Made by a program: the position numbers and the translations under genes. The notes below the pieces were generated by a model. The model made no database searches, was not told the DNA's origin, and saw only the letters and a program-made list of their open reading frames with translations. DNA of 62,658 nucleotides, from positions 1-62,658 of the forward strand of contig JBFGJY010000005.1 in assembly GCA_041576975.1 (NCBI GenBank), in the 5' to 3' direction. This DNA comes from Gammaproteobacteria bacterium. GTDB taxonomy: Bacteria; Pseudomonadota; Gammaproteobacteria; UBA4575. Positions 48,361-58,420 of this stretch are shown one piece after another. The first letter of the stretch is position 1. Every line of letters begins with the position of its first letter.

Positions 48361-49026
48361 TTACTTGCAGCTACGAAGTTTAAGATAATCTGCGGTCAAC
48401 GTTGCGGGGTTATGCGGGGTGGGAAAATATGCTTGTAGACGAAGCTCTGGGTCTACGAGGGACATAGAGGAATCGCTGTACTCCACCTTGTATTCACGGC
48501 CCGCTTGCGGCGGGGAGATCGTATAGGAAATTCCCAATTCACTTGCAAAGTCCTCGAGTGCATCTGAAGTACCGGTTACACCGATAAAATGATCATCGTA
48601 ATGACTTAGATGATCGGCGAGTCGCTGCAATGTATCTCGATGTGGGTCGACGGCAACCAACAACACCTGACTGTCAGCGACCTTGTCCGTTTTTGAGAGG
48701 GTGGCATACATTTTCGCCAGAGCCGTCAAGCTCACAACACATGGACCTGTGCAACGACTCTCACTAAACACAACAAACGTCCATTTGCCCTTTAGATATT
48801 CTTGAGTAAATTCTTTGCCTTGATGATTCAGCAAGGTAAAAGGTTCAAGCTGCCAAGGTTCCGGCAATAACAATGCTTCAAGACTGGTCGGTTGGCCACG
48901 CAACTCGGCTAAGGCCGGCCCAAAAATACTAATCGCCGCTCCAAATAAAAGAATCATTAATAGCATGCGCCGTAGAACGGTCTTTATTATTTTTGTTTTA
49001 CCTTTTATGTCCTGCATCTCATCCAA
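48361..49026 (-). CDS. SCO1/SenC family protein
   Basis: LKGKW, CTGPC, VDPHRDT, GVTG. Confidence 0.85.
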   Translation of the reverse strand: MDEMQDIKGKTKIIKTVLRRMLLMILLFGAAISIFGPALAELRGQPTSLEALLLPEPWQLEPFTLLNHQGKEFTQEYLKGKWTFVVFSESRCTGPCVVSLTALAKMYATLSKTDKVADSQVLLVAVDPHRDTLQRLADHLSHYDDHFIGVTGTSDALEDFASELGISYTISPPQAGREYKVEYSDSSMSLVDPELRLQAYFPTPHNPATLTADYLKLRSCK

Positions 49027-49028
49027 TC

Positions 49029-51170
49029 CTAAACTTTCTTTTGCCGCAAGAAAGGCACCGGTGTAAGTGCGGTCTGTCGATGCATTGCCGTCCCACTGGA
49101 GCCGTCTACTTCACGAGCTGCGATCAGGGAATTAATGACCACCACCATGCTCGACCCTGCCATTAAGGCGGCAGCAATAACGGGCAAGAGCAATCCTGCG
49201 GCTGCCAACGACAGGGCCACTAAGTTGTAACTCAAAGCCCAGATCAAATTTGTCCAAACCGTCTTTTGCACCCGCCTCGCGAGTATGATCAACCACGGTA
49301 GCCTTTCGAGTGCAGCCTCCGACAAGGTCACATCCGCACTAGCGCGTGCCAGGTCCGTGGCATTACCCACAGCAACGCCTATACTTGCCTTGGCCAATAC
49401 AGGTCCATCATTGATTCCATCACCAACCATGGCCACGGGCCCATGCTGCCGTGTCCATTCGCCGAGTGTCTCGACCTTTTGCAGTGGCAGCAGACCACCT
49501 TGCCATTCTTGAACGCCTGCTTGCTTGGCACTTTGCTCAACAACTACTGGATCGTCCCCGCTGATCAAATAAGTACGCAATCCTGCAGCGTGTAGGGCTT
49601 CGATCATTGGCGGTACCTGTGGATCTAAGGCCTCTGTTAATTCAAACGCTCCATGTACCGACCCATGCCAACCGATGTAGACGATTGAATGATTGCCAGG
49701 TACGTAGCTGATATTAAGGGTTGTCGGCACAGTCCATCCAAGGGAGTGCATGAGATCTAGCGAGCCCATCGCCACAAAAATCTCGGCTAGCTTGGCACTA
49801 ACCCCCATGCCGGCATGCGCCTGAAATTCGGTAACGGGGAGAGGGGTGATAGCTCGCTGTTTTGCAGTTTGCAAAATCGCTGCGGCCTTTGGGTGCGAAA
49901 AGCCTTGTGCCAAGCTTGCGGCACGCTCTAACACCACCCGATTTTCATGCGGTACAGTGACGAGCTTGGCTACTGCCAAGGAATGCGCTGTCAAGGTGCC
50001 TGTTTTGTCAAAGGCCACACCCTTCAGTCGAGCAAGATATTCAAATACCCCGCCTTCGCGCAATATAATCCCATGTTGTGCCGCTTGGCCCAGGCCGATG
50101 GCCGTGGCCAATGGAGCCGCCAAGCCGAGAGCACAAGGACATGCGACGACCAACACTGCCATGCCGGACAGTAAGGCCTGCTCAAATGAGGTGTGCTGAC
50201 TCCAATAATAGACAGTGCCGATTCCAAGCATGAGCACTGCGAATACAAATACGGCAGACACTCGATCCACCAGCCTTCCCACTAGAGTTTTATGCGCCAA
50301 GGTCTGCCTAATTTGACGGCTCATTCGTACCCAATAGGTATCCTGACCTGAGACTGTGGTGCGGATCAGCAATTGCCCGTGTCGATTGACACTTCCAGCA
50401 TAGACTGCTGAGCCAGGTTGTTTTTCTGTATTGGTACTTTGGCCGGTTAGAATTTCTTCATTGCAACTGGAGTGTCCCTCGACCACCACACCGTCTACCG
50501 GAATGCGTTCGCCTGGTGGTACCCGCACCAGGGTATTGGCAGCGATGGCAACGATAGGCTGTTCACGTTCTTGATGATTCTCGATTACCGTCGCGATTGC
50601 ACGTTCGGCCTCTAGCAGGGGCATTAAACTGCGTGTGGTGCGCACGCGGGCCTGTGCCTCTAGGTATCGCCCAACCGTAAACAACACCACGACCATCGTC
50701 GCGGTATCAAAATAAACGACCTCACCACCCGTCAAGATCTGCAACACGGAGTAGCCGTAAGCCCCTAAAGTGCCCACACTTACCAATGTATCGGCGTTGG
50801 CTTGACATTGCCTGGCTGCCTCCCAGGCACCGCGAATAAATGGCCCACCCACAAAGAACACCACAGGCGTAGCGAGTATCCATAGCAGAATATGGATCCC
50901 TTGCAATAATGAAGCGCTCAGGGTACTTACCGACTCGGAGTACAGCATCAAGCTAAACAGCATGATGTTCATTGCCAGAAAAGCGCCAATGCCCAAACGA
51001 ATCAGCAGCCATGCCGCGACGGGTTCTTCGCGGCTACCGTGCTTGACCAAATAAGCCAGGCAACAGCCATAACAACAAAACACTTGTACCTCGCCATTGA
51101 CCTCGCGTCGTTGAACATAGCTGCGCACCGGTAGCTGACAATGCGTACACAATGCGGAGTTGTCTGTCAT
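49029..51170 (-). CDS. ccoI: Cu-translocating P1B-type ATPase (CcoI/FixI-like)
   Basis: CTHC..FCCYGC N-terminus, CPC, DKTGT, GDGINDGP, YN; ATG overlaps the upstream stop. Confidence 0.8.
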   Translation of the reverse strand: MTDNSALCTHCQLPVRSYVQRREVNGEVQVFCCYGCCLAYLVKHGSREEPVAAWLLIRLGIGAFLAMNIMLFSLMLYSESVSTLSASLLQGIHILLWILATPVVFFVGGPFIRGAWEAARQCQANADTLVSVGTLGAYGYSVLQILTGGEVVYFDTATMVVVLFTVGRYLEAQARVRTTRSLMPLLEAERAIATVIENHQEREQPIVAIAANTLVRVPPGERIPVDGVVVEGHSSCNEEILTGQSTNTEKQPGSAVYAGSVNRHGQLLIRTTVSGQDTYWVRMSRQIRQTLAHKTLVGRLVDRVSAVFVFAVLMLGIGTVYYWSQHTSFEQALLSGMAVLVVACPCALGLAAPLATAIGLGQAAQHGIILREGGVFEYLARLKGVAFDKTGTLTAHSLAVAKLVTVPHENRVVLERAASLAQGFSHPKAAAILQTAKQRAITPLPVTEFQAHAGMGVSAKLAEIFVAMGSLDLMHSLGWTVPTTLNISYVPGNHSIVYIGWHGSVHGAFELTEALDPQVPPMIEALHAAGLRTYLISGDDPVVVEQSAKQAGVQEWQGGLLPLQKVETLGEWTRQHGPVAMVGDGINDGPVLAKASIGVAVGNATDLARASADVTLSEAALERLPWLIILARRVQKTVWTNLIWALSYNLVALSLAAAGLLLPVIAAALMAGSSMVVVINSLIAAREVDGSSGTAMHRQTALTPVPFLRQKKV

Positions 51171-51940
51171 AGAGGATGGGTATGCAGCGCCAGAGGCAAT
51201 GCGCCGCGCGTAATCGTAATAATGCCAAGTAATAAAATAAATGCCCCACAGATGCGCAGGCCATAAAGGCGCCAACTGGCTTGTAACCAGTTGCTGCTAT
51301 GTTCCCTACCTAATTGAACCAAGGGGACGGTTTGCACTTGTGCAGCTTGCGTTCGAATATGAAATATCGCACCCACACCCCCCATGGCCAACATTGCTGC
51401 CAAGGTACCCAGACCAAATACCGCCATGGTGAGAATGCCGGGTAGAGTTCCACCGCTTGCCGCAGCCTGTGCAGCAAAAGCATATACCAGGGGACAGGGC
51501 AAAAAGCCATTTAGTACCCCAAATGCCAATGGCGCAAGTGGACTTGGGTGTTTAAGCAGATCGCGCAATGCCTGGGAAAGAATTTGGCTGCCCAAACCGT
51601 TGAGTGCATGCTGTTTGGTTGTGGCGAAGCCAAAGAATTGCATTCCTACCAAAATCATCAATGCGCCGGAAACAGTTGCCAATACCCGTTGGGCAATTAC
51701 CGACGGTGTGCCTTCTAAGCTATGCATAAACTGCATACCAAGAAAACCAACCAGGCCGCCGATAAAACAATAAGTGGTGACTCTGCCAAGGTTATATATA
51801 AGGTGTCGTCGTAGCGTCGCGGTAGGTCCGCGCACATCCGGGCCAAGTGCACAAGCAAAGCCCCCACACATGCCTATGCAGTGTAGACTACCAGCCACAC
51901 CGGCGATAAAGATCAACAAGTATGGTGTGAAGTAAGCCAT
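51167..51940 (-). CDS. DsbD_2/TauE-like cbb3 assembly membrane protein
   Basis: SLHCIGMCGG, YNLGR, LNGFLPCPLVY, FGLGT. Confidence 0.85.
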   Translation of the reverse strand: MAYFTPYLLIFIAGVAGSLHCIGMCGGFACALGPDVRGPTATLRRHLIYNLGRVTTYCFIGGLVGFLGMQFMHSLEGTPSVIAQRVLATVSGALMILVGMQFFGFATTKQHALNGLGSQILSQALRDLLKHPSPLAPLAFGVLNGFLPCPLVYAFAAQAAASGGTLPGILTMAVFGLGTLAAMLAMGGVGAIFHIRTQAAQVQTVPLVQLGREHSSNWLQASWRLYGLRICGAFILLLGIITITRGALPLALHTHPL

Positions 51941-52066
51941 TCTGTATCGAGTATCGTAGCCTGGCTGGGGCGTAGCGTGACCCAAGATTGCAGCGTTATA
52001 TTCCTAGCTTCAATTGTATTTACTGTGGGCATGCACAATTTATTTGATTGCCAGGCTCTATAGAAA

Positions 52067-52159
52067 CTATTTTGAGAACATCAGGTACAGCACCCACAAA
52101 AAGAAGCCTACTGTGGAGACGATAAAGATTCCAAAGCCTATGCTTTCATTCATGGTCAT
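52067..52159 (-). CDS. 30-aa single-TM peptide (CcoQ-like)
   Basis: MTMNESIGFGIFIVSTVGFFLWVLYLMFSK after a perfect AGGAGG RBS. Confidence 0.55.
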   Translation of the reverse strand: MTMNESIGFGIFIVSTVGFFLWVLYLMFSK

Positions 52160-52170
52160 GCAGACCTCCT

Positions 52171-52281
52171 TTAGGGTAACTGTATGGCAGGGATCATTTG
52201 TCCAAATATATTTAGACTAAGCTCGCTGACAAGGAAAAGTATGTTGAGTGCTGCCAGTAGCAATAAGATTCGTTCGGCCAT
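52171..52281 (-). CDS. 36-aa hydrophobic peptide
   Basis: MAERILLLLAALNILFLVSELSLNIFGQMIPAIQLP after AGGAGG RBS. Confidence 0.5.
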   Translation of the reverse strand: MAERILLLLAALNILFLVSELSLNIFGQMIPAIQLP

Positions 52282-52291
52282 GATTACCTCC

Positions 52292-52501
52292 TTAATAACT
52301 CAGTCCGGGGCCCAAGCCCCCCCAGTACGTGAAACCGTAGTACAGTGCCCATACAAACATCACTATATAAACGATTATCAGCCAGACGTTGATACGCCCA
52401 TGACGCGCCTCGATGTGACCATCGCCATACTTTTCGGTTTGTTGATGATGGGGCAATGTTTCATTCTGCTCTGAAGAAGTCTTATCTGGATTCTGGCTCA
52501 T
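52292..52501 (-). CDS. Small membrane protein resembling the CcoP N-terminal anchor
   Basis: YGDGHIEARHGRINVWLIIVY...WALYY; no haem motif. Confidence 0.55.
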   Translation of the reverse strand: MSQNPDKTSSEQNETLPHHQQTEKYGDGHIEARHGRINVWLIIVYIVMFVWALYYGFTYWGGLGPGLSY

Positions 52502-52649
52502 CGTCTACTACCTCCGCACGGTACGCGCGATATTTAATGTCTTCGACATCGTTAAACATTCCTGATAATACGGCCCAAATAAATACACACACTGCACCCA
52601 GGCACATGAATACCGCCACCAAAAATTGTAAAAAGGTGAGTTCAATCAT
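52482..52649 (-). CDS. ccoS: CcoS/FixS-like maturation protein (55 aa)
   Basis: Hand-translated MIELTFLQ...FIWAVLSGMFNDVEDIKYR..DD, matching WA..SG.F.D.E. Confidence 0.7.
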   Translation of the reverse strand: MIELTFLQFLVAVFMCLGAVCVFIWAVLSGMFNDVEDIKYRAYRAEVVDDEPESR

Positions 52650-54396
52650 TACTCGCTCCCATGGTTTGTGGTATCAACATTTCATCTTCGATGTTGTGCA
52701 ATTCGCCAGCCTGTGCTGTCGGTACTATTTCAATGCCATGTTTACTGGCCCAGGCCTCACCGGCATAATAAGAATATTCGGTGTCTGCGGCGTCACCCAT
52801 TGGTTGATAGGCATAGTGTGACTCGGTGGCCTTGAGTGCCGGATGATTCAAGGCCGCACGGTCGACACTAGAAATTTTCAGCGGCTTGCCGGTAAGCGGG
52901 TCCTTAAATGCTGACAATGAGAGTACGTAATACGATAAAGCCCAACGATCTTCCTCGGATTGCGTATCGGCGTAAGACGGCATTGGTGTTCCACTTAAGC
53001 CGTTGCTCATGGTGCGATAGATATCTTTAACCGAAGGGCCAGATTTGAATTGACCCGTAGTCAGGTCCGCCGGTCGAATTGGATAACCGAAGTCGTCTTC
53101 GAGTTCGGCCGCCTTCTCACCATCGCCCTTACCGGTATCGCCATGACATTCCCAGCATTTGGCCTCTTGCCAAACATCTTTTCCATGCGCCACGATCTCA
53201 GCCGAGGGTGTCGGTGCCTCACCGATAAATATCGGTGGCTCAATCGGTTCTTCAACAAAATAAAAATACGGGTAATCTGGATCGCTCTTGTCTACGGCAA
53301 GTTCATATTTAATGTATTGAACCACTGCGAGGCGATCTTTTTCCTGCAGGTTATGCCAGGTCGGCATGGCCGAGCCACGTACTCCGCGTGACAGTGTGCG
53401 TAGTAAATCACCGTCGGTAGGCAAGGACCCTGATGGCGTGAGGTGGAATTTGAACACGCCGAGGGTAAAGTCGCGGGGTCGAAATTCCGTCATAAAGGTG
53501 GCTGCTGGGCCGTTACCATTTCCAGTTTCACCGTGGCAGCCTAGGCAGCGTCGTCGGTAAACTTCTTTTCCATAATCAACCCATTCCTCGGAACGTGGAA
53601 TCGAACCTTGCATTGCCCCCACCAATTGTGGCTCGAATCGATCTCGCCATTTGCCACGATTAGTACCGAGCTTTTGCAAATAGGCCACCAAAGCCTTTAG
53701 TTCCTCAGTAACGGCGATCAGCTCAACTTTGTCCCCGGTATACTCATCATTAGGAGTGAAGATAATCGGGTATTTGCCGCGTTCCTTAACATAGGTCAGA
53801 CCCTCAGCATTGGGGGTGAGCAAGATAGTTTCTTGGCTAGTGAAGTCGAATAGCTTCTTAGTTTCTTCATTTGCAGCAAGTGTCTTATTGCCGGTTTCAT
53901 CTGTGACGATCTCGGCAACATAGGGCCCCTCAAAGTAGTAGGCAAATCGCGGCATGATGGAGTCGGGAGAAATCATGCGTGGGTCCCAAAAATGGGCAAT
54001 GTGCCATTCGTCGCTATATTTCAATCCTACCCGCGAGAGATCTGGTCCGATTCGGCGCGTTGAAAATAGATGCGGTTGGTCATACGCATACTCACCGGAC
54101 TGGGTTACTGGCCCCCAGCGACGGGTCTCGCCAGTTACTGGGCGCACGAATTGCGAGTGACAAAACCAACAGCCATCACGGATATACAAGCGCCGACCGT
54201 GCGCCTCAAGTTCGGTATAATCAGTAGCCTCGTCTTCCATCCACTTTAGTTCACCAAGGTCAGTGCGTACTACCTTAGTAATTTTAGTGGTAGTCGATTC
54301 CGGTTCCAACCAGGGCAACAGACCTTGAGTAAACACCGCCAGAAAAAAGAACCCCACACCCGCAATCAAGCTTACATTACGGGCAGTCATGTTCAT
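52642..54396 (-). CDS. CcoO-like subunit fused to two further cytochrome c domains (trihaem)
   Basis: GRRLYIRDGCWFCHSQFVRP, RRIGPDL, SIMP; plus CLGCH and CWECH. Confidence 0.85.
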   Translation of the reverse strand: MNMTARNVSLIAGVGFFFLAVFTQGLLPWLEPESTTTKITKVVRTDLGELKWMEDEATDYTELEAHGRRLYIRDGCWFCHSQFVRPVTGETRRWGPVTQSGEYAYDQPHLFSTRRIGPDLSRVGLKYSDEWHIAHFWDPRMISPDSIMPRFAYYFEGPYVAEIVTDETGNKTLAANEETKKLFDFTSQETILLTPNAEGLTYVKERGKYPIIFTPNDEYTGDKVELIAVTEELKALVAYLQKLGTNRGKWRDRFEPQLVGAMQGSIPRSEEWVDYGKEVYRRRCLGCHGETGNGNGPAATFMTEFRPRDFTLGVFKFHLTPSGSLPTDGDLLRTLSRGVRGSAMPTWHNLQEKDRLAVVQYIKYELAVDKSDPDYPYFYFVEEPIEPPIFIGEAPTPSAEIVAHGKDVWQEAKCWECHGDTGKGDGEKAAELEDDFGYPIRPADLTTGQFKSGPSVKDIYRTMSNGLSGTPMPSYADTQSEEDRWALSYYVLSLSAFKDPLTGKPLKISSVDRAALNHPALKATESHYAYQPMGDAADTEYSYYAGEAWASKHGIEIVPTAQAGELHNIEDEMLIPQTMGASND

Positions 54397-55823
54397 GACG
54401 TTACTCCTTGCGTGGCCACATCCAGCCCAGGGTGGGTCTCTGTTCTGGCCGGCTTAATCGCCGTTAAGGCAAAATTAACGACCAATAAGGTCATGCCCAA
54501 GTCCATCAAGATGCCGGCCACGGTACGCACCAGCCAGTAGGGTCGGACCGCGACTATGGTATCTAGCCACTCGGTACCGGCCATCCACATATAGCCTTGC
54601 TGTAACCCAAGGGCGGTCAGGTCTAGTCCCATCAAAGTGATACCAAAAGTGATCAACCAAAACGACCAATTGCCCATACGAAATGACCACAACGGCTTGC
54701 CTAATAAACGCGGTAGTACATATACCGTTCCGCCAATGGCCCATACCACGAAAGTGCCAAACACCGTCAAGTGCGAGTGTGAGATAACAAAGTCGGTAAA
54801 GTGTGTGGGTTGTTGAATTGCGCGCAGCGCCTCGGTGGAGCCTTGAAAACAACCGACAAGATACATGAGTGACCCCATGATCAGAAACTTTGCCGTTAGA
54901 TTTTGACTAAAGGTATTCCATCTACCGATCATGGTGCCGAAGAAGTTTTGCAGCACCGTCCATACCGGAATGATCAACAGCATGGAAGTAATGATGGCCA
55001 GCGTCTCGGCCCAATCCGCAATCGGACTATATAGATAATGGTGGATGCCTACAAAAGGATAAAATAGTGCCAACGACCAAAATCCGACTAAGGACAACTT
55101 ATGGCTATAGATGGGATTTCTGACGCTGGCGGGTAAAAAATAGTAGATCAGCACATAACCTGCCGGGGTGATCCACAGCCCCACGATGTAATGAATAAAT
55201 AACCCGTGGAAGGCGGCGCTGTTAATGCCAGAGATAGTATAAGGTAAAATAAAACTGCCGAGGATCAGATTCAGCACCGTCCATATGAAGGCCGCCAGCA
55301 AATACCATAGTGCGACGTACAGTTGTGGTTCCTTACGCCGGCCGATGGTGATTACAAACTGAACAGTCGCTAGAGTGACGACTGTGAAGATGATGCTGTC
55401 CGTCAACAATGGAAACTCCCCGGCCTCCAATGCTTGTGCATGGCCCATCACCATTAATGCTATTCCCAACAATAGATTCAGGTTCCATACCCATACCAGC
55501 CAGTGGCCCCAATGCCCATTCCAGATGCGCACCCCACATAAGCGCGGCACCAGGTAATAGCACAAGCCGATAAATAGCGTGGAAAAGGCACCGAAGATCA
55601 CACCATTGACATGCAAGGGGCGTAAGCGCCCAAAGGTGAGATATTCGGAGGTGCCCAGATAGTCGGGATAGTTAAACAGGCTGGAGATAGCCGCACCGAT
55701 AGAAGGGGTAAACATCAACCAAAACAGGCCCCAATATAGCCATTTACGTACTAAGGCAAAATCGACCAATTCATCTAAGTCGGGGCGAGCATCTTCAGCT
55801 GGGCGCGTGATTGCATCAGACAT
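54393..55823 (-). CDS. ccoN: Divergent cbb3-type (family C) haem-copper oxidase subunit I
   Basis: FGRLRPLH, IHYIVG, YPFVGIHH, HFTDFVISHSH: six His ligands and helix-VII Tyr present. Confidence 0.85.
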   Translation of the reverse strand: MSDAITRPAEDARPDLDELVDFALVRKWLYWGLFWLMFTPSIGAAISSLFNYPDYLGTSEYLTFGRLRPLHVNGVIFGAFSTLFIGLCYYLVPRLCGVRIWNGHWGHWLVWVWNLNLLLGIALMVMGHAQALEAGEFPLLTDSIIFTVVTLATVQFVITIGRRKEPQLYVALWYLLAAFIWTVLNLILGSFILPYTISGINSAAFHGLFIHYIVGLWITPAGYVLIYYFLPASVRNPIYSHKLSLVGFWSLALFYPFVGIHHYLYSPIADWAETLAIITSMLLIIPVWTVLQNFFGTMIGRWNTFSQNLTAKFLIMGSLMYLVGCFQGSTEALRAIQQPTHFTDFVISHSHLTVFGTFVVWAIGGTVYVLPRLLGKPLWSFRMGNWSFWLITFGITLMGLDLTALGLQQGYMWMAGTEWLDTIVAVRPYWLVRTVAGILMDLGMTLLVVNFALTAIKPARTETHPGLDVATQGVTS

Positions 55824-55919
55824 GTACTACGACCTCTCTTTTTATATCATCACGCACATTTTATGCGCGTGACATTTTTTATTTTTTACCGCCGTTTTGT
55901 ATGCTTTAAACCAGAAAAC

Positions 55920-56375
55920 TTAGTGGACTCCTGGAGTTAACGGTGAATCTCGATTAGAGTGATAGATATACGCCTCTAATGCCTTCATCGCAGCGCTATC
56001 CGATTCAATTTTTATTCCCTGATTCGGCTTTTCAATGCACCAGTTAATCATGTCACGCAATGTCGCGAATTCATTCATCTGTTCTTGAAACTTAGGAAAT
56101 TCATGCGGGTGCACATCAGCGGAATTAGGATGACACATGGCACACGCCATGCCTGTTTCACTAAGCGTCACACCAAATTCCTTTTCTGTAGCGGGGTCAC
56201 CGTGAAATAGCAAGTCACCTTTATTCACATTTTCCATGTATACCTCATGAAACGCTTGTAGTGTTTCAGCATCGTGTTCTTTTTTATGTGCAAGAGCCCA
56301 AGTCGTTGCAACGATAGCGAACACAAAAATAAAACCCGTTATCACTCTTACCCATCGATTATCAGTTTTATTCAT
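55920..56375 (-). CDS. Monohaem cytochrome c, SoxA/TsdA-like domain
   Basis: CAMCH plus LRDMINWCIEKPNQG..ALEAYI (candidate Cys ligand). Confidence 0.7.
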   Translation of the reverse strand: MNKTDNRWVRVITGFIFVFAIVATTWALAHKKEHDAETLQAFHEVYMENVNKGDLLFHGDPATEKEFGVTLSETGMACAMCHPNSADVHPHEFPKFQEQMNEFATLRDMINWCIEKPNQGIKIESDSAAMKALEAYIYHSNRDSPLTPGVH

Positions 56376-56458
56376 AACTATTCCCTCCTAAGGGAAGCAG
56401 TTTGTTTTTCACAAACTTATTTATCTTTTTTATCTCTATCTATGGCTAGAATTATTGA

Positions 56459-57607
56459 CTAGTACGGCCACATATTATCTGCGGTACGGCCATGTAAGTT
56501 TTGCGTCGGATTATCGCCAGTACCCGAATCAACCGCCTTGTTTGCAAACACTTTACCTTCACGTTCATTCCACATCATGTATTGGTGTTCAAAACTACCG
56601 TCAGCGTTTGCAGTCATTTTGTCCCAACCGAGACCATCAAAGTGATCGCCGATATCTACACGAATCATCGGTGTGGTTAATGCAGGTACGCCTTCAGGGG
56701 CATATGGCCAAGGCCATGAAGTAGCCAGCATGCCAATGAATTTCATGTTGCCAATTTCGTTATAAAGCACCTGGTGAGTATGACCATGGAAATTGGTAAC
56801 ATTATTATGCGTCTGTAAAATCTCATGCACTTCCCGCCAATCACGCACCCAAAAATTCCAAGGTGGATAGTATTGATAGAGTGGGTTATGACTGAAGATC
56901 ACTAGCGGTTTATCTTTTGGCCAGTCTGAAATCGCATCTTGTAGCCATTTAAGTTGATTATGCCCAAGACCTGCCCAAGGACCCGCCACTGTGCCATCCA
57001 GGGCCTCCATATGCCCCATGCGCTCTTTGGCCGTCATCTTTTTGGCCGACCAATAATCGGGTGCAAAACCAACGGTGTTTAAGCCTACAAAGCGCACACC
57101 TTTATGATCAAACTTCCAGGGACTGCCGCCAAAGTGTTTTTCCCATTTTTTACCCATGTCCAGATACCAATCGTGTTCACCTGGAATAAACACCTTTTTA
57201 ATTTTAATTTCTTTAAGCAATTCAACACCTAGATCAATTTCTACCGGATCGCCCTTTTGCGCAAGATCACCGCCAAATAGCACAAAGTCTGCAGCTGGTT
57301 TCATACCTTGAACTTCTTGAAATGCCCTTACAGTTTTCTCTACGAAACGCGTATTCAAAGCTCTGGGATACAGATGGGTATCTGAAATCCAGGCAAATTT
57401 GAAGGATTCAGTTGCCGCTGAAGCTACATCAATGGTGTTGAGTAGTGGGAACCAACCAGCGGCGGCTACACCCGCAGCAGTGCCTGCCGCTAAGGATCGG
57501 TTTAAAAAAATCCGCCGAGTAATTTTAAAACTTTTATCGATGCCTTTCTCTGCCTCACGTAACGCGCATTCCTTTTCACGTTGTTCTTGTTTGCTAGGTT
57601 TTTTCAT
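56459..57607 (-). CDS. Tat-exported calcineurin-like metallophosphoesterase
   Basis: TRRIFL twin-Arg signal; SDTH, GGDL, GEHD, SH, GHTH. Confidence 0.85.
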   Translation of the reverse strand: MKKPSKQEQREKECALREAEKGIDKSFKITRRIFLNRSLAAGTAAGVAAAGWFPLLNTIDVASAATESFKFAWISDTHLYPRALNTRFVEKTVRAFQEVQGMKPAADFVLFGGDLAQKGDPVEIDLGVELLKEIKIKKVFIPGEHDWYLDMGKKWEKHFGGSPWKFDHKGVRFVGLNTVGFAPDYWSAKKMTAKERMGHMEALDGTVAGPWAGLGHNQLKWLQDAISDWPKDKPLVIFSHNPLYQYYPPWNFWVRDWREVHEILQTHNNVTNFHGHTHQVLYNEIGNMKFIGMLATSWPWPYAPEGVPALTTPMIRVDIGDHFDGLGWDKMTANADGSFEHQYMMWNEREGKVFANKAVDSGTGDNPTQNLHGRTADNMWPY

Positions 57608-57658
57608 TTGATTCCTCCGCGTTCTTGCGTCATATCTATTTAGTTATTATTAAAATAA

Positions 57659-58420
57659 TTATTTTTTCAGTTCGAGAGATAGCTCTGTGGTTTCGCCTTC
57701 TTTCACACTTACAGAAACTTCTATTGGTCCGGTATATTCTTGCGTGGCTATTAAGGTGTAGTCCCCGGGTGGCACATCCGTTAAGGAAAAGCTGCCATCT
57801 TCAGTCGTTAAAGTGTAATAAGGGCTGTCTGCTACATAGACCCAACCTAGCATCCAACCATGCGCATCACAATCAACACGAACTTTGCCAGGACGTTTTA
57901 ATTGCTTGGTTATGCTGTCGCCTTTATTTGGCAGTGCTAAGTTAAATGCCGTGCGTTTACCATAATACCCATGTGTGTTATGCAAAATAGGATCTTCATT
58001 GATAATTTCAATATCACCTGCGCGTACAACTTGCACATGAGGCTCGAAGATGCAGTCTTTATTAGAGATATATGGTGGTTCTTTTGGCGCTTCCCACGCT
58101 TTGCCTTTAGCAACTTTTTTCAAGTAGACAACTGCGTCTTGCACGCCTTTATTTTCATCAACTAAAATTTTTGCTTCATCACGAATGCCGCCACAGATTT
58201 TTTTGTCTTTTGTGGGAATCACTTTCTTCTTAGGCACACTCCCTTGATAAGTTACTTTGCCACTAATGGTGCCGCCATTAGCAACTTCTATTTCTTCATA
58301 GGCTTGAACTGAAAGACCAATACTGAGCAGGAATAAAATACAAATGGCGTGGAAGATTGCACGAGGGAACTTCATCGGTAGTTGCTCTGCATGTTTTGGG
58401 TTATACATGTCTTTTATCAA
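57659..58420 (-). CDS. Exported cupredoxin-like protein with carboxypeptidase-regulatory-like domain (start uncertain)
   Basis: HNTH and CDAHGWM type-1 Cu-like ligands; DGSFSLTDVPPGDY. Confidence 0.75.
   Translation of the reverse strand: MIKDMYNPKHAEQLPMKFPRAIFHAICILFLLSIGLSVQAYEEIEVANGGTISGKVTYQGSVPKKKVIPTKDKKICGGIRDEAKILVDENKGVQDAVVYLKKVAKGKAWEAPKEPPYISNKDCIFEPHVQVVRAGDIEIINEDPILHNTHGYYGKRTAFNLALPNKGDSITKQLKRPGKVRVDCDAHGWMLGWVYVADSPYYTLTTEDGSFSLTDVPPGDYTLIATQEYTGPIEVSVSVKEGETTELSLELKK

Follow-up and report, generated by a model that had tools for sequence, protein, structure and literature searches.

A recurrent, mobile gene cassette joins a distinct cbb3-type oxidase to a blue-copper protein and a metallophosphoesterase–cytochrome pair, possibly for the oxidation of a sulfur compound

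This study concerns an operon in a 62,658-nucleotide stretch of DNA (hereafter the window) from a gammaproteobacterium of the UBA4575 lineage (GenBank assembly GCA_041576975.1, contig JBFGJY010000005.1, positions 1 to 62,658 of the forward strand). The operon encodes a cupredoxin, a calcineurin-like metallophosphoesterase (MPE) with a twin-arginine (Tat) leader, a monohaem cytochrome of the SoxA/TsdA family, a divergent CcoN-like oxidase subunit, a CcoO subunit fused to a dihaem domain, and a set of maturation and copper-handling proteins. Our analysis firmly supports a self-contained cassette in which a distinct cbb3-type O2 reductase is accompanied by private copper delivery and a private blue-copper protein. 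As to function, we tentatively favor, at a confidence that stops just short of an even balance, a portable cassette that would pass electrons from a substrate, probably a sulfur compound, to O2. That the MPE–cytochrome pair would oxidize such a compound in a Sox-like manner is plausible. Literature searches returned no description of the trio of cupredoxin, MPE and SoxA-like cytochrome or of a connection between the trio and this oxidase clade; the feature, which is real and conserved, is apparently unstudied.

What was observed directly comprises the genes present, the conserved ligands and folds of their products, the placement of the oxidase clade, and patterns of synteny and co-occurrence. 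This gene order is found again in 80 loci of other genomes from at least eight phyla, and the arrangement is therefore far beyond chance. These loci are the best 80 of 157 confirmed relatives, and two of them from unpublished genomes (L020 and L079) are counted in the tallies; gene presence was scored by tblastn with the window proteins, and many loci end at contig ends. The hosts are Beta-, Gamma-, and Alphaproteobacteria, including Cupriavidus necator, Ralstonia pickettii, Thiocapsa, and Pseudothauera, together with SAR324, Rokubacteria, Methylomirabilota, Entotheonella, Acidobacteriota, Gemmatimonadota, and one genome bin labelled Flavobacteriales. The initial annotation, made from the letters of the DNA, had joined the phosphoesterase and the cytochrome to this type of CcoN, and the pair is indeed kept beside the clade. 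Among the 67 loci with more than 2.6 kb of DNA upstream of ccoN, the cupredoxin gene was found in 62 and the MPE and cytochrome genes occurred together in 49, with no locus carrying one alone. DNA sequencing runs in which the window sequence occurs come from marine, estuary, and sediment metagenomes.

The assignment of the CcoN-like enzyme to a distinct clade of the C-family (cbb3-type) haem-copper oxidases is firmly supported. It scores only about 190 bits against the solved cbb3 CcoN chains (3mk7/5djq, 6xkw, and 9g83), with the canonical ligand motifs aligned, and 235.8 bits against the ccoN equivalog TIGR00780, under the cut-off of 583.15; the canonical ccoN of the same genome, which additionally encodes two A-type oxidases, reaches 637. 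A quick maximum-likelihood tree was computed from 48 subunit-I homologs, comprising all 28 haem-copper oxidase homologs of five genomes and 20 clade members. In this tree, 25 clade rows formed one group (Shimodaira–Hasegawa-like approximate likelihood ratio test, SH-aLRT, 100; stem 0.89) that was sister to the canonical CcoN group (SH-aLRT 100, stem 0.98). The divergence that had been proposed for this oxidase is thus upheld by phylogeny, the clade standing as a separate sister group and not nesting among the five canonical proteobacterial CcoN sampled. A second copy in one genome (L104 in G021), clade-like by bit score, was placed outside the clade on a long branch. The family is sizeable: of the 8000 candidates that were scored, 1591 proteins reached E ≤ 1e-30, and the best 120 share 74–100% identity.

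Within the catalytic subunit, the active-site tyrosine (Y255) and the haem and CuB histidines H71, H211, H261, H262, H349, and H351 are invariant among 79 aligned sequences (H71 in 77/79 with two gaps, the other ligand histidines in 79/79), and the motifs align to 9g83 and 6xkw. Y255 occupies the C-family position in helix VII, six residues before the HH pair, and aligns with the tyrosine of canonical LYIWAGPHH. In the canonical FEGP motif, the glutamate forms a hydrogen bond to the proximal haem b3 histidine; 79/79 clade members have glutamine (Q327, FQGS) at this place. In subunit II, all three CxxCH motifs are invariant across 72/72 sequences. From this residue pattern, the clade oxidase looks like an O2 reductase. 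Separate CcoP, CcoQ, ccoG, and ccoH were not seen in the operon, where no CcoQ family match was obtained either, and the products of three small membrane open reading frames (ORFs) are probably oxidase subunits. Ducluzeau et al. reportedly delineated a "distal" cbb3 subtree in 2008, to which the present clade may correspond. In the accessible portions of two papers on iron oxidizers (PMC10734462, PMC8788666), cbb3 oxidases are cited as falling into "proximal" and "distal" subtrees of differing subunit composition, and the distal ccoNO of Sideroxydans ES-1, a possible member of the present clade, is described as up-regulated on thiosulfate.

The cupredoxin, a type-1 blue-copper protein with a signal peptide, a C-terminal beta-sandwich, and a predicted copper site, was modelled with AlphaFold2 from 36 sequences at a predicted local distance difference test score (pLDDT) of 92. 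Foldseek matched its central domain to amicyanin, plastocyanin, pseudoazurin, and the cupredoxin domain of NirK (E about 1e-6, target template modelling score about 0.7), and no Pfam cupredoxin family was matched. The putative ligands H147, C184, H187, and M190 are conserved in 61/61 full rows in the pattern LHN...CDAHGWM, even in variants at 36–42% identity, with the copper ligands arranged as a C-x2-H-x2-M loop; C76 and C123 are likewise invariant. Where the MPE and cytochrome genes are missing from an oxidase locus, the cupredoxin gene is still there in 13/18 cases. Six loci without the pair (L024, L031, L044, L055, L059, and L060) carry arsenite oxidase AioB and AioA instead, with NCBIfam scores of 131 against a cut-off of 96 and 476 against a cut-off of 359, respectively. 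Their gene order is Rieske subunit, molybdopterin subunit, dihaem cytochrome c, cupredoxin, Cox11-like protein, DUF4382 protein, and oxidase, and the NCBIfam name "arsenate reductase (azurin)" reflects a cupredoxin acceptor. In other loci, from Acidobacteriota and related groups, the cupredoxin gene directly precedes ccoN. The modular slot that separates the cupredoxin gene from ccoN, with AioAB present in sister loci, is the strongest comparative argument for two reasonably supported points, namely that the slot would carry the substrate enzyme, acting as electron donor, and that the cupredoxin would be the electron entry to the clade oxidase. The Aio variant (L024:1532-8002) is preceded by a pair of genes for an extracytoplasmic function (ECF) sigma factor and its anti-sigma factor.

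The MPE of the window and its relatives constitutes a well-defined family. In 48 aligned sequences (47 relatives and the window), R31 and R32 of the Tat RR motif are invariant, the five motifs DxH, GD, G(E)H, H, and GHxH are preserved in 48/48, and so are the metal ligands D76, H78, D114, E144, H240, H276, and H278. In motif III, the usual asparagine (GNH[D/E]; GNHD at the aligned place in GpdQ) is replaced by glutamate (GEHD) in 48/48 oxidase-linked and 9/9 stand-alone MPEs examined, GEHD being a hallmark of the family. The structural model is of moderate quality (pLDDT 66, core 70–90), and its nearest folds are the phosphodiesterases GpdQ (3d03, E 1e-12) and Rv0805. Consistently, the family profile retrieved GpdQ at 6e-9 from the PDB and found only GpdQ, Rv0805, PptH, and Mre11. 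The best NCBIfam model is of the CpdA type at 51 bits, and all NCBIfam scores lie far under their cut-offs. In a Gammaproteobacteria bin (L046:6241-7908), the MPE frame continues without a stop into the cytochrome gene. A fusion protein was rejected as the explanation, as the cytochrome retains its own methionine and signal peptide, and the read-through, which was given no weight as evidence, is probably due to a stop codon that was lost or wrongly called, or else to faulty assembly.

The partner cytochrome exceeds the gathering score of PF21342 (SoxA-TsdA_cyt-c) in the window and likewise in relatives. Its CAMCH motif and the NWC of INWC are invariant, the cysteine (C113) in 51/51 sequences, and its family profile retrieved SoxA (1h31, 5.7e-7) and TsdA (4wq7, 9e-5). 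In the profile alignment, the CxxCH motif aligns to His53 of TsdA, while C113 coincides with the INAC cysteine of SoxA and with TsdA Cys96, which we take to be a haem ligand. The candidacy of the INWC cysteine as a haem ligand, put forward in the initial annotation, is strengthened by this invariance and alignment, and a His/Cys-ligated haem is predicted. TsdA itself, which serves as a model for the SoxA family, works by way of an S-thiosulfonate formed at the cysteine that ligates the haem, according to the available part of PMC4423706. Against the SoxA equivalog TIGR04484, the cytochrome scores 34.9 bits, with a cut-off of 110. No SoxX-type gene is present in the operon, the rest of the genome not having been searched for SoxX. 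Further histidines are invariant, namely H30, H34, H58, and the C-terminal H151, which is the very last residue; H30 directly follows the predicted signal-peptide cut (AxA↓HKxxH). These extra histidines suggest a possible second metal site. Stand-alone cytochromes, described below, do not have the N-terminal histidine pair.

Several lineages connect the cassette to sulfur carriers. A fused SoxY-SoxZ gene lies between the cytochrome gene and ccoN in six loci of Entotheonella, Methylomirabilota, and Rokubacteria (L070, L073, L075, L076, L078, and L083), the fusion is situated upstream in L074, and in SAR324 (L013) soxY and soxZ are inserted between the ATPase and SCO genes. On pSymA of S. meliloti, the cupredoxin–MPE–cytochrome trio is back to back with soxY, soxZ, and genes for a c-type cytochrome and a flavin adenine dinucleotide (FAD) oxidoreductase, which resemble a flavocytochrome pair, and it is located a few kb from SCO, groEL, and oxidase genes. 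SoxY-like proteins linked to the loci retain a (G/N)GC motif that bears the carrier cysteine. SoxY- or SoxZ-like genes were found in 8/52 MPE-type loci versus 0/18 loci without MPE. At the genome level, SoxY is encoded by the hosts of 66/80 loci overall, 48/52 MPE-type loci, and 10/18 loci without MPE (Fisher p = 0.0012 for the latter contrast, uncorrected for relatedness and between groups that differ in phylum). SoxB (E ≤ 1e-50) occurs in the host genomes of 45/80 loci and of 31/52 MPE-type loci, and SoxY is present with SoxB absent in 17/52 of the latter. The window genome (completeness 100) encodes a true SoxYZ pair next to HiPIP, cytochrome c, and sulfur-transport genes, no match to SoxB (TIGR04486), and a single SoxA/TsdA domain, that of the operon cytochrome.

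A few additional observations on carriers and plasmids were made. The pSymA locus (L117, CP130049.1:1116795-1137904) places the trio, soxYZ, the flavocytochrome-like pair, SCO, groEL, and oxidase genes within 15 kb of a conjugative symbiotic megaplasmid, and Sinorhizobium accounts for 35 of the 44 plasmid records on which the MPE was detected. In the SoxY-SoxZ fusions at L070:7058-7981 and L076:7079-7945, the SoxY part is additionally matched by the Pfam model of the desulfoferrodoxin iron-binding domain (5.6e-9 and 6.2e-8). Another contig of the window genome (C67, L087:6089-8031) encodes a fused SoxYZ-like "quinoprotein dehydrogenase-associated" carrier (TIGR04557, 279 bits) adjoining a "quinoprotein relay system zinc metallohydrolase" (TIGR04559, 370 bits); the two belong to a different system that has received little study.

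The cassette is, as firmly supported by the following evidence, horizontally acquired, mobile, and self-contained. Its guanine-plus-cytosine content is 0.47–0.545 over 48.5–55.9 kb of the window, compared with about 0.40–0.43 in the flanks, and two genomes of the same family that were searched had neither the MPE nor the clade oxidase. The tree of the oxidase clade mixes phyla and is incongruent with taxonomy. In the bin labelled Flavobacteriales (L048; 225-5044 and 15837-17345), the cassette is located between integrase and serine-recombinase genes. The latter cassette is preceded by genes for a DAHL-domain histidine kinase and a LuxR-type response regulator, a pair also seen in L019, L026, and L050. 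Regarding regulation, TTGATTTAAATCAA is the only perfect FNR/CRP-type match in the window. It was rejected as a conserved regulator of the cassette, given that no FNR box with at most one mismatch was present upstream of the cupredoxin gene in any of 51/51 other loci; it would therefore represent local, host-specific wiring.

The composition of the operon is detailed in Table 1. Pfam and NCBIfam searches located every gene named in the initial annotation at 48361-58420, all in the same orientation on the minus strand. The interval from ccoO to the DsbD_2 gene holds four small ORFs. All those previously listed are present, but CcoS is the 55-aa ORF, whose start overlaps the ccoO stop codon (ATGA), and not the 69-aa ORF. 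The latter has no family match in Pfam or NCBIfam, and the idea that it represents the N-terminal helix of CcoP was dropped, there being no Pfam support even at E ≤ 1. In the gap before DsbD_2, at least one hydrophobic ORF with a ribosome-binding site was found in 57/60 loci; when scored with our own loose motifs, the 36-aa micro-protein was recovered in 50/60 gaps and the 30-aa one in 41/60. The cupredoxin ORF is listed from a TTG at 58420, and its true start is probably a downstream ATG. The listed ORF of the P1B-ATPase overlaps the end of the DsbD_2 gene, its start being uncertain, and its N-terminal ATPase-cat_bd domain (PF12156) is weakly matched at 18.8 bits against 27. DsbD_2-type proteins are often annotated as TauE/SafE by NCBI, and the S. 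meliloti counterpart is named sulfite exporter TauE/SafE. The operon is flanked by a dihydroorotate dehydrogenase gene on one side and ntrBC-like genes on the other. Elsewhere in the window (17689-39345, minus strand), minor-pilin genes of type IV pili form three paralogous clusters in tandem, each consisting of GspH/FimT-like, PilV-like, PilW, and PilX genes followed by a large PilY1 (1157, 1314, and 1246 aa).

Table 1. Features of the operon and its upstream region in the window, with related trios of other genomes; positions without a prefix refer to the window, lengths are in amino acids (aa), and the last column gives tblastn detection among the 80 relative loci.
Feature	Position	Strand	Match or motif	Detection
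Blue-copper cupredoxin, 253 aa, CarboxypepD_reg C-terminal domain	57659-58420	-	PF13620 34.5 bits	63/80
MPE (calcineurin-like metallophosphoesterase), 382 aa, Tat signal/twin-arginine leader	56459-57607	-	PF00149 3e-14, 54.2 bits	50/80
Monohaem c-type cytochrome, 151 aa, SoxA/TsdA family	55920-56375	-	PF21342 41.8 bits, cut-off 27	52/80
CcoN-like subunit I, 476 aa, COX1-like	54393-55823	-	PF00115 6e-70; TIGR00780 236 bits, cut-off 583	
Subunit II, 584 aa, CcoO with fused CcoP-like dihaem domain (CcoO-cc)	52642-54396	-	FixO PF02433 5e-47, 160.7 bits; two cytochrome c domains	77/80
CcoS/FixS-type maturation protein, 55 aa	52482-52649	-	PF03597 25.9 bits, cut-off 23.1	
69-aa single-pass membrane protein, possible small oxidase subunit	52292-52501	-		74/80
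36-aa hydrophobic micro-protein, AAGGAGG ribosome site	52171-52281	-	homologous peptides, pattern LNLxFLxxELxxNV	
30-aa hydrophobic micro-protein, AAGGAGG ribosome site	52067-52159	-	homologous peptides, end like FFxWVAYLAxKK	
DsbD_2-family membrane protein	51167-51985	-	PF13386 3.5e-41	61/80
Copper P1B-ATPase, CcoI/FixI-like	49029-51275	-	TIGR01525 458.4 bits, cut-off 346; TIGR01511 408.9 bits, cut-off 397	58/80
SCO1/SenC copper chaperone, CxxxC motif CTGPC	48361-49026	-	PF02630 91.5 bits	19/80
FNR/CRP-type palindrome TTGATTTAAATCAA	58671-58684		perfect match; about 250 bp upstream of the cupredoxin gene	
Peroxidase–MPE–cytochrome trios of other Gammaproteobacteria	L119:7742-10515, L120:7687-10305, L121:4407-7105, L124, L125, L126:8330-10932			

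From these observations we infer an electron path, a substrate, and a physical association of the proteins, which can be set out as a working scheme. The back end is made up of the CcoN-like subunit and the trihaem CcoO fusion, probably with the three small membrane subunits, and has CcoS, the DsbD_2 protein, the copper P1B-ATPase, and SCO for its own maturation and copper supply. At the front end, the blue-copper protein, a near-constant partner of the oxidase, would most likely hand electrons to the trihaem subunit. The unit in the slot, which in the window and most relatives pairs the Tat-exported GEHD dimetal hydrolase with the SoxA/TsdA-type cytochrome, could operate in two steps. The Cys-ligated haem protein may oxidatively bind a sulfur anion (thiosulfate, for instance), either at its own cysteine or at that of a SoxYZ-type carrier arm, yielding two electrons for the cupredoxin and the oxidase; this would be the oxidative thiol conjugation known of TsdA and SoxA. 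Subsequently, the dimetal hydrolase could split off the terminal sulfonate to give sulfate, in the same chemical role as SoxB within the Sox system. A bolder version, which we consider possible yet doubtful, is that the GEHD hydrolase and the Cys-ligated monohaem cytochrome are an unrecognized two-protein sulfur-oxidizing enzyme, an independently evolved minimal analog of SoxA plus SoxB. It would act on thiosulfate or SoxYZ-type conjugates and feed a private cbb3-type oxidase through the blue-copper protein; it would sit in a swappable slot, have spread through at least eight phyla, and have been re-used with di-haem peroxidases to burn its substrate with H2O2.

A number of results weigh against this scheme and are best considered together. 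The resemblance of the MPE to SoxB noted in the initial annotation extends to the Tat leader, the superfamily, and the dimetal ligands, but no further: the MPE family profile found no SoxB in the PDB, no TIGR04486 match was obtained at E ≤ 0.01, and by sequence and fold the enzyme is GpdQ/Rv0805-like and a relative of SoxB only at the superfamily level. The guess of a sulfur substrate gains from the SoxYZ-like genes in or beside the cluster and from SoxY in 48/52 genomes with MPE-type loci, but not from the MPE, which is not SoxB-like beyond the superfamily. The MPE was rejected as a general substitute for SoxB, in that 31/52 genomes with MPE-type loci encode SoxB as well. SoxYZ genes are absent within about 8 kb of 44/52 MPE-type loci, the operon-linked SoxY-like proteins score 37–98 bits against a "true SoxY" cut-off of 125, and 4/52 genomes with MPE-type loci, including the isolate Arhodomonas sp. 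AD133, contain no SoxY. The co-occurrence with SoxY is, moreover, confounded by phylogeny. Given that His/Cys haems have very low potentials, the cytochrome would make a poor simple electron carrier. The canonical CcoN in the tree come from only five proteobacterial genomes, all reached through the study loci. Finally, no RNA run is listed among the sequencing runs that carry the locus.

The occurrence of the MPE–cytochrome pair on its own belongs to the same account. Among 400 sampled genomes from the class to which the window belongs, 5 contained close MPE orthologs (65–73% identity) and 33 contained homologs at 35–46%. The clade oxidase was present in 4/5 genomes with a close ortholog, beside the MPE; one of the four (G376) is unpublished. 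Ten loci with distant MPEs, holding 11 MPE copies, were inspected, and a SoxA/TsdA-type cytochrome with CxxCH and INWC directly follows each copy. None of the 10 has the oxidase, the cupredoxin, or SoxYZ nearby, and in 6/10 a gene for a CCP/MauG di-haem peroxidase lies directly upstream of the pair (Table 1). Such peroxidase-linked pairs would also fit a peroxide-related role, or one in protein modification of the kind proposed for BthA and the phosphatase encoded beside it. In two other loci of the 10, an Lcl_C-domain gene lies downstream, and L121 holds a second MPE–cytochrome copy 8 kb away. The earlier suggestion that the pair is a dedicated feeder of the oxidase is accordingly retained in part: the pair is conserved beside the clade, but it also occurs alone and is not oxidase-specific.

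These distant pairs lend weight to an account in which the MPE and cytochrome assist enzymes that reduce terminal oxidants, whether a cbb3-type oxidase or a di-haem peroxidase, by clearing inhibitory or reactive periplasmic species such as sulfide or persulfide adducts or peroxide-derived compounds, or in which the MPE is itself a target of oxidative modification. Haem-copper oxidases are sulfide-sensitive, and the pairs behind the CCP/MauG genes belong to the same GEHD family (9/9) at 35–46% MPE identity. A precedent is offered by BthA, a MauG-like di-haem enzyme of Burkholderia, which the accessible text of PMC6405878 describes as always encoded beside a putative purple acid phosphatase of unknown function and as proposed to oxidize this neighbor. 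Nevertheless, the window operon contains no CCP/MauG gene, the neighbors of the oxidase-linked version include SoxYZ-type carriers as well as a flavocytochrome-like pair, an indication of substrate oxidation, and the AioAB variant indicates that the slot hosts electron donors. On balance, such a helper role seems improbable to us, though far from negligible. A more conventional account treats the operon as a second cbb3 isoform in which the cupredoxin and cytochrome are general carriers from bc1 to the oxidase, the MPE is an accessory with an unrelated or unknown role, and there is no dedicated substrate. Multiple isoforms are normal, and the window genome also encodes two A-type oxidases and a canonical CcoN; in 13/18 loci devoid of the pair, the cupredoxin is still found with the oxidase, and the perfect FNR-type box in the window host is expected for low-O2 oxidases. 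However, that box is missing from 51/51 other loci. In addition, the cytochrome belongs to a catalytic family with a ligand cysteine and not to the class-I carrier fold, the MPE and cytochrome are inherited strictly together (both in 49 loci, a single one in 0) and are also paired away from the oxidase, and AioAB dehydrogenases occupy the same slot in sister loci. We therefore judge a mere isoform to be unlikely.

Two narrower alternatives concern single components. The MPE could be a genuine periplasmic phosphodiesterase or phosphatase for phosphorus scavenging whose place in the operon is incidental. Its best family and fold matches (the CpdA-type model, GpdQ, and Rv0805) and its complete set of metal ligands are compatible with this, whereas the strict pairing with a SoxA/TsdA-type cytochrome in oxidase-linked and stand-alone loci alike, the low NCBIfam scores, and the invariant Asn-to-Glu exchange in motif III argue against it, making this option quite improbable. 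The CcoN-like enzyme, in turn, might reduce nitric oxide (NO) or another N-oxide instead of O2, an option that had been left open in the initial annotation. The glutamine near haem b3 in 79/79 sequences gives active-site surroundings unlike those of canonical cbb3, and NO reductase (NOR) families are relatives of the C family, as stated in the available portion of PMC11214002. According to that same portion, however, the new NOR and N2O-reductase families lack the active-site tyrosine (PMC11214002). Because this tyrosine is invariant in the clade, an NO or N2O reductase identity is disfavored; the three CuB histidines are invariant as well. The N2O-reductase family of haem-copper enzymes, which is without the tyrosine and adjoins cNOR, was rejected on these grounds as a home for the clade (PMC11214002). 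Furthermore, no nir, nor, or nos genes were seen in 12 annotated loci, and the assembly genes are copper-specific. We thus regard an NO-reducing enzyme as very improbable.

If the proposal of a sulfur-oxidizing cassette holds, it would amount to a second, differently built route of periplasmic inorganic-sulfur oxidation. This route would operate in both free-living and symbiotic bacteria, whose habitats are soils, sediments, sponges, and the ocean; among its hosts would be Cupriavidus, Sinorhizobium, Thiocapsa, SAR324, Rokubacteria, and Entotheonella. It would explain the orphan SoxYZ that occur without SoxB in 17/52 genomes with MPE-type loci and in the window genome. Additionally, the MPE family, with glutamate in place of asparagine, would stand as a functionally new branch within the metallophosphoesterase superfamily, and a function would be given to a large, unstudied, and highly conserved cbb3-type clade that is now annotated together with ordinary high-affinity oxidases. 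Whichever reading holds, the cassette is directly testable in genetically tractable hosts.

Comparison with known systems places the cassette among established modules while setting it apart from each. With the canonical cbb3 oxidases (CcoNOQP and ccoGHIS), it shares the subunit I fold, the six histidines, the C-family tyrosine, a CcoO-type monohaem subunit, a CcoP-like dihaem module, CcoS, and a CcoI-like copper ATPase. It differs in forming a sister clade, in the fusion of the dihaem domain to CcoO, in the glutamine that replaces the FEGP glutamate, in three other small membrane ORFs, and in an operon that holds its own cupredoxin, DsbD_2, and SCO genes. The Sox system likewise combines a SoxA/TsdA-family haem protein carrying a ligand cysteine with a Tat-exported dinuclear hydrolase of the metallophosphoesterase superfamily, and SoxY/SoxZ-type carriers occur in or beside the present cluster in several lineages. 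In contrast to Sox, the cytochrome here is monohaem, the operon has no SoxX and no SoxCD, the hydrolase is GpdQ/Rv0805-like whereas SoxB has a 5'-nucleotidase C-terminal domain, and the cupredoxin and a dedicated oxidase are encoded in the same operon. TsdA matches the family profile, with its CxxCH and invariant cysteine aligned, but it is dihaem, makes tetrathionate, and needs no hydrolase, whereas the present cytochrome has one haem, an obligate MPE partner, and extra invariant histidines.

The BthA system similarly ties an exported metallophosphoesterase-type protein genetically to periplasmic c-type haem enzymes; the window operon differs in having no CCP/MauG gene. The rus operon of Acidithiobacillus ferrooxidans is a substrate-to-oxidase operon with a cupredoxin and an aa3 oxidase. 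Relative to this operon and to the AioAB–azurin arrangement, the oxidase family and the substrate enzymes are different here, and the MPE–cytochrome unit is without a characterized counterpart. Nonetheless, the cassette, like its sister loci with AioAB, in which this wiring is directly visible, has the same organization as these systems, with a periplasmic or outer oxidizing enzyme, a blue-copper carrier, and a terminal oxidase encoded together.

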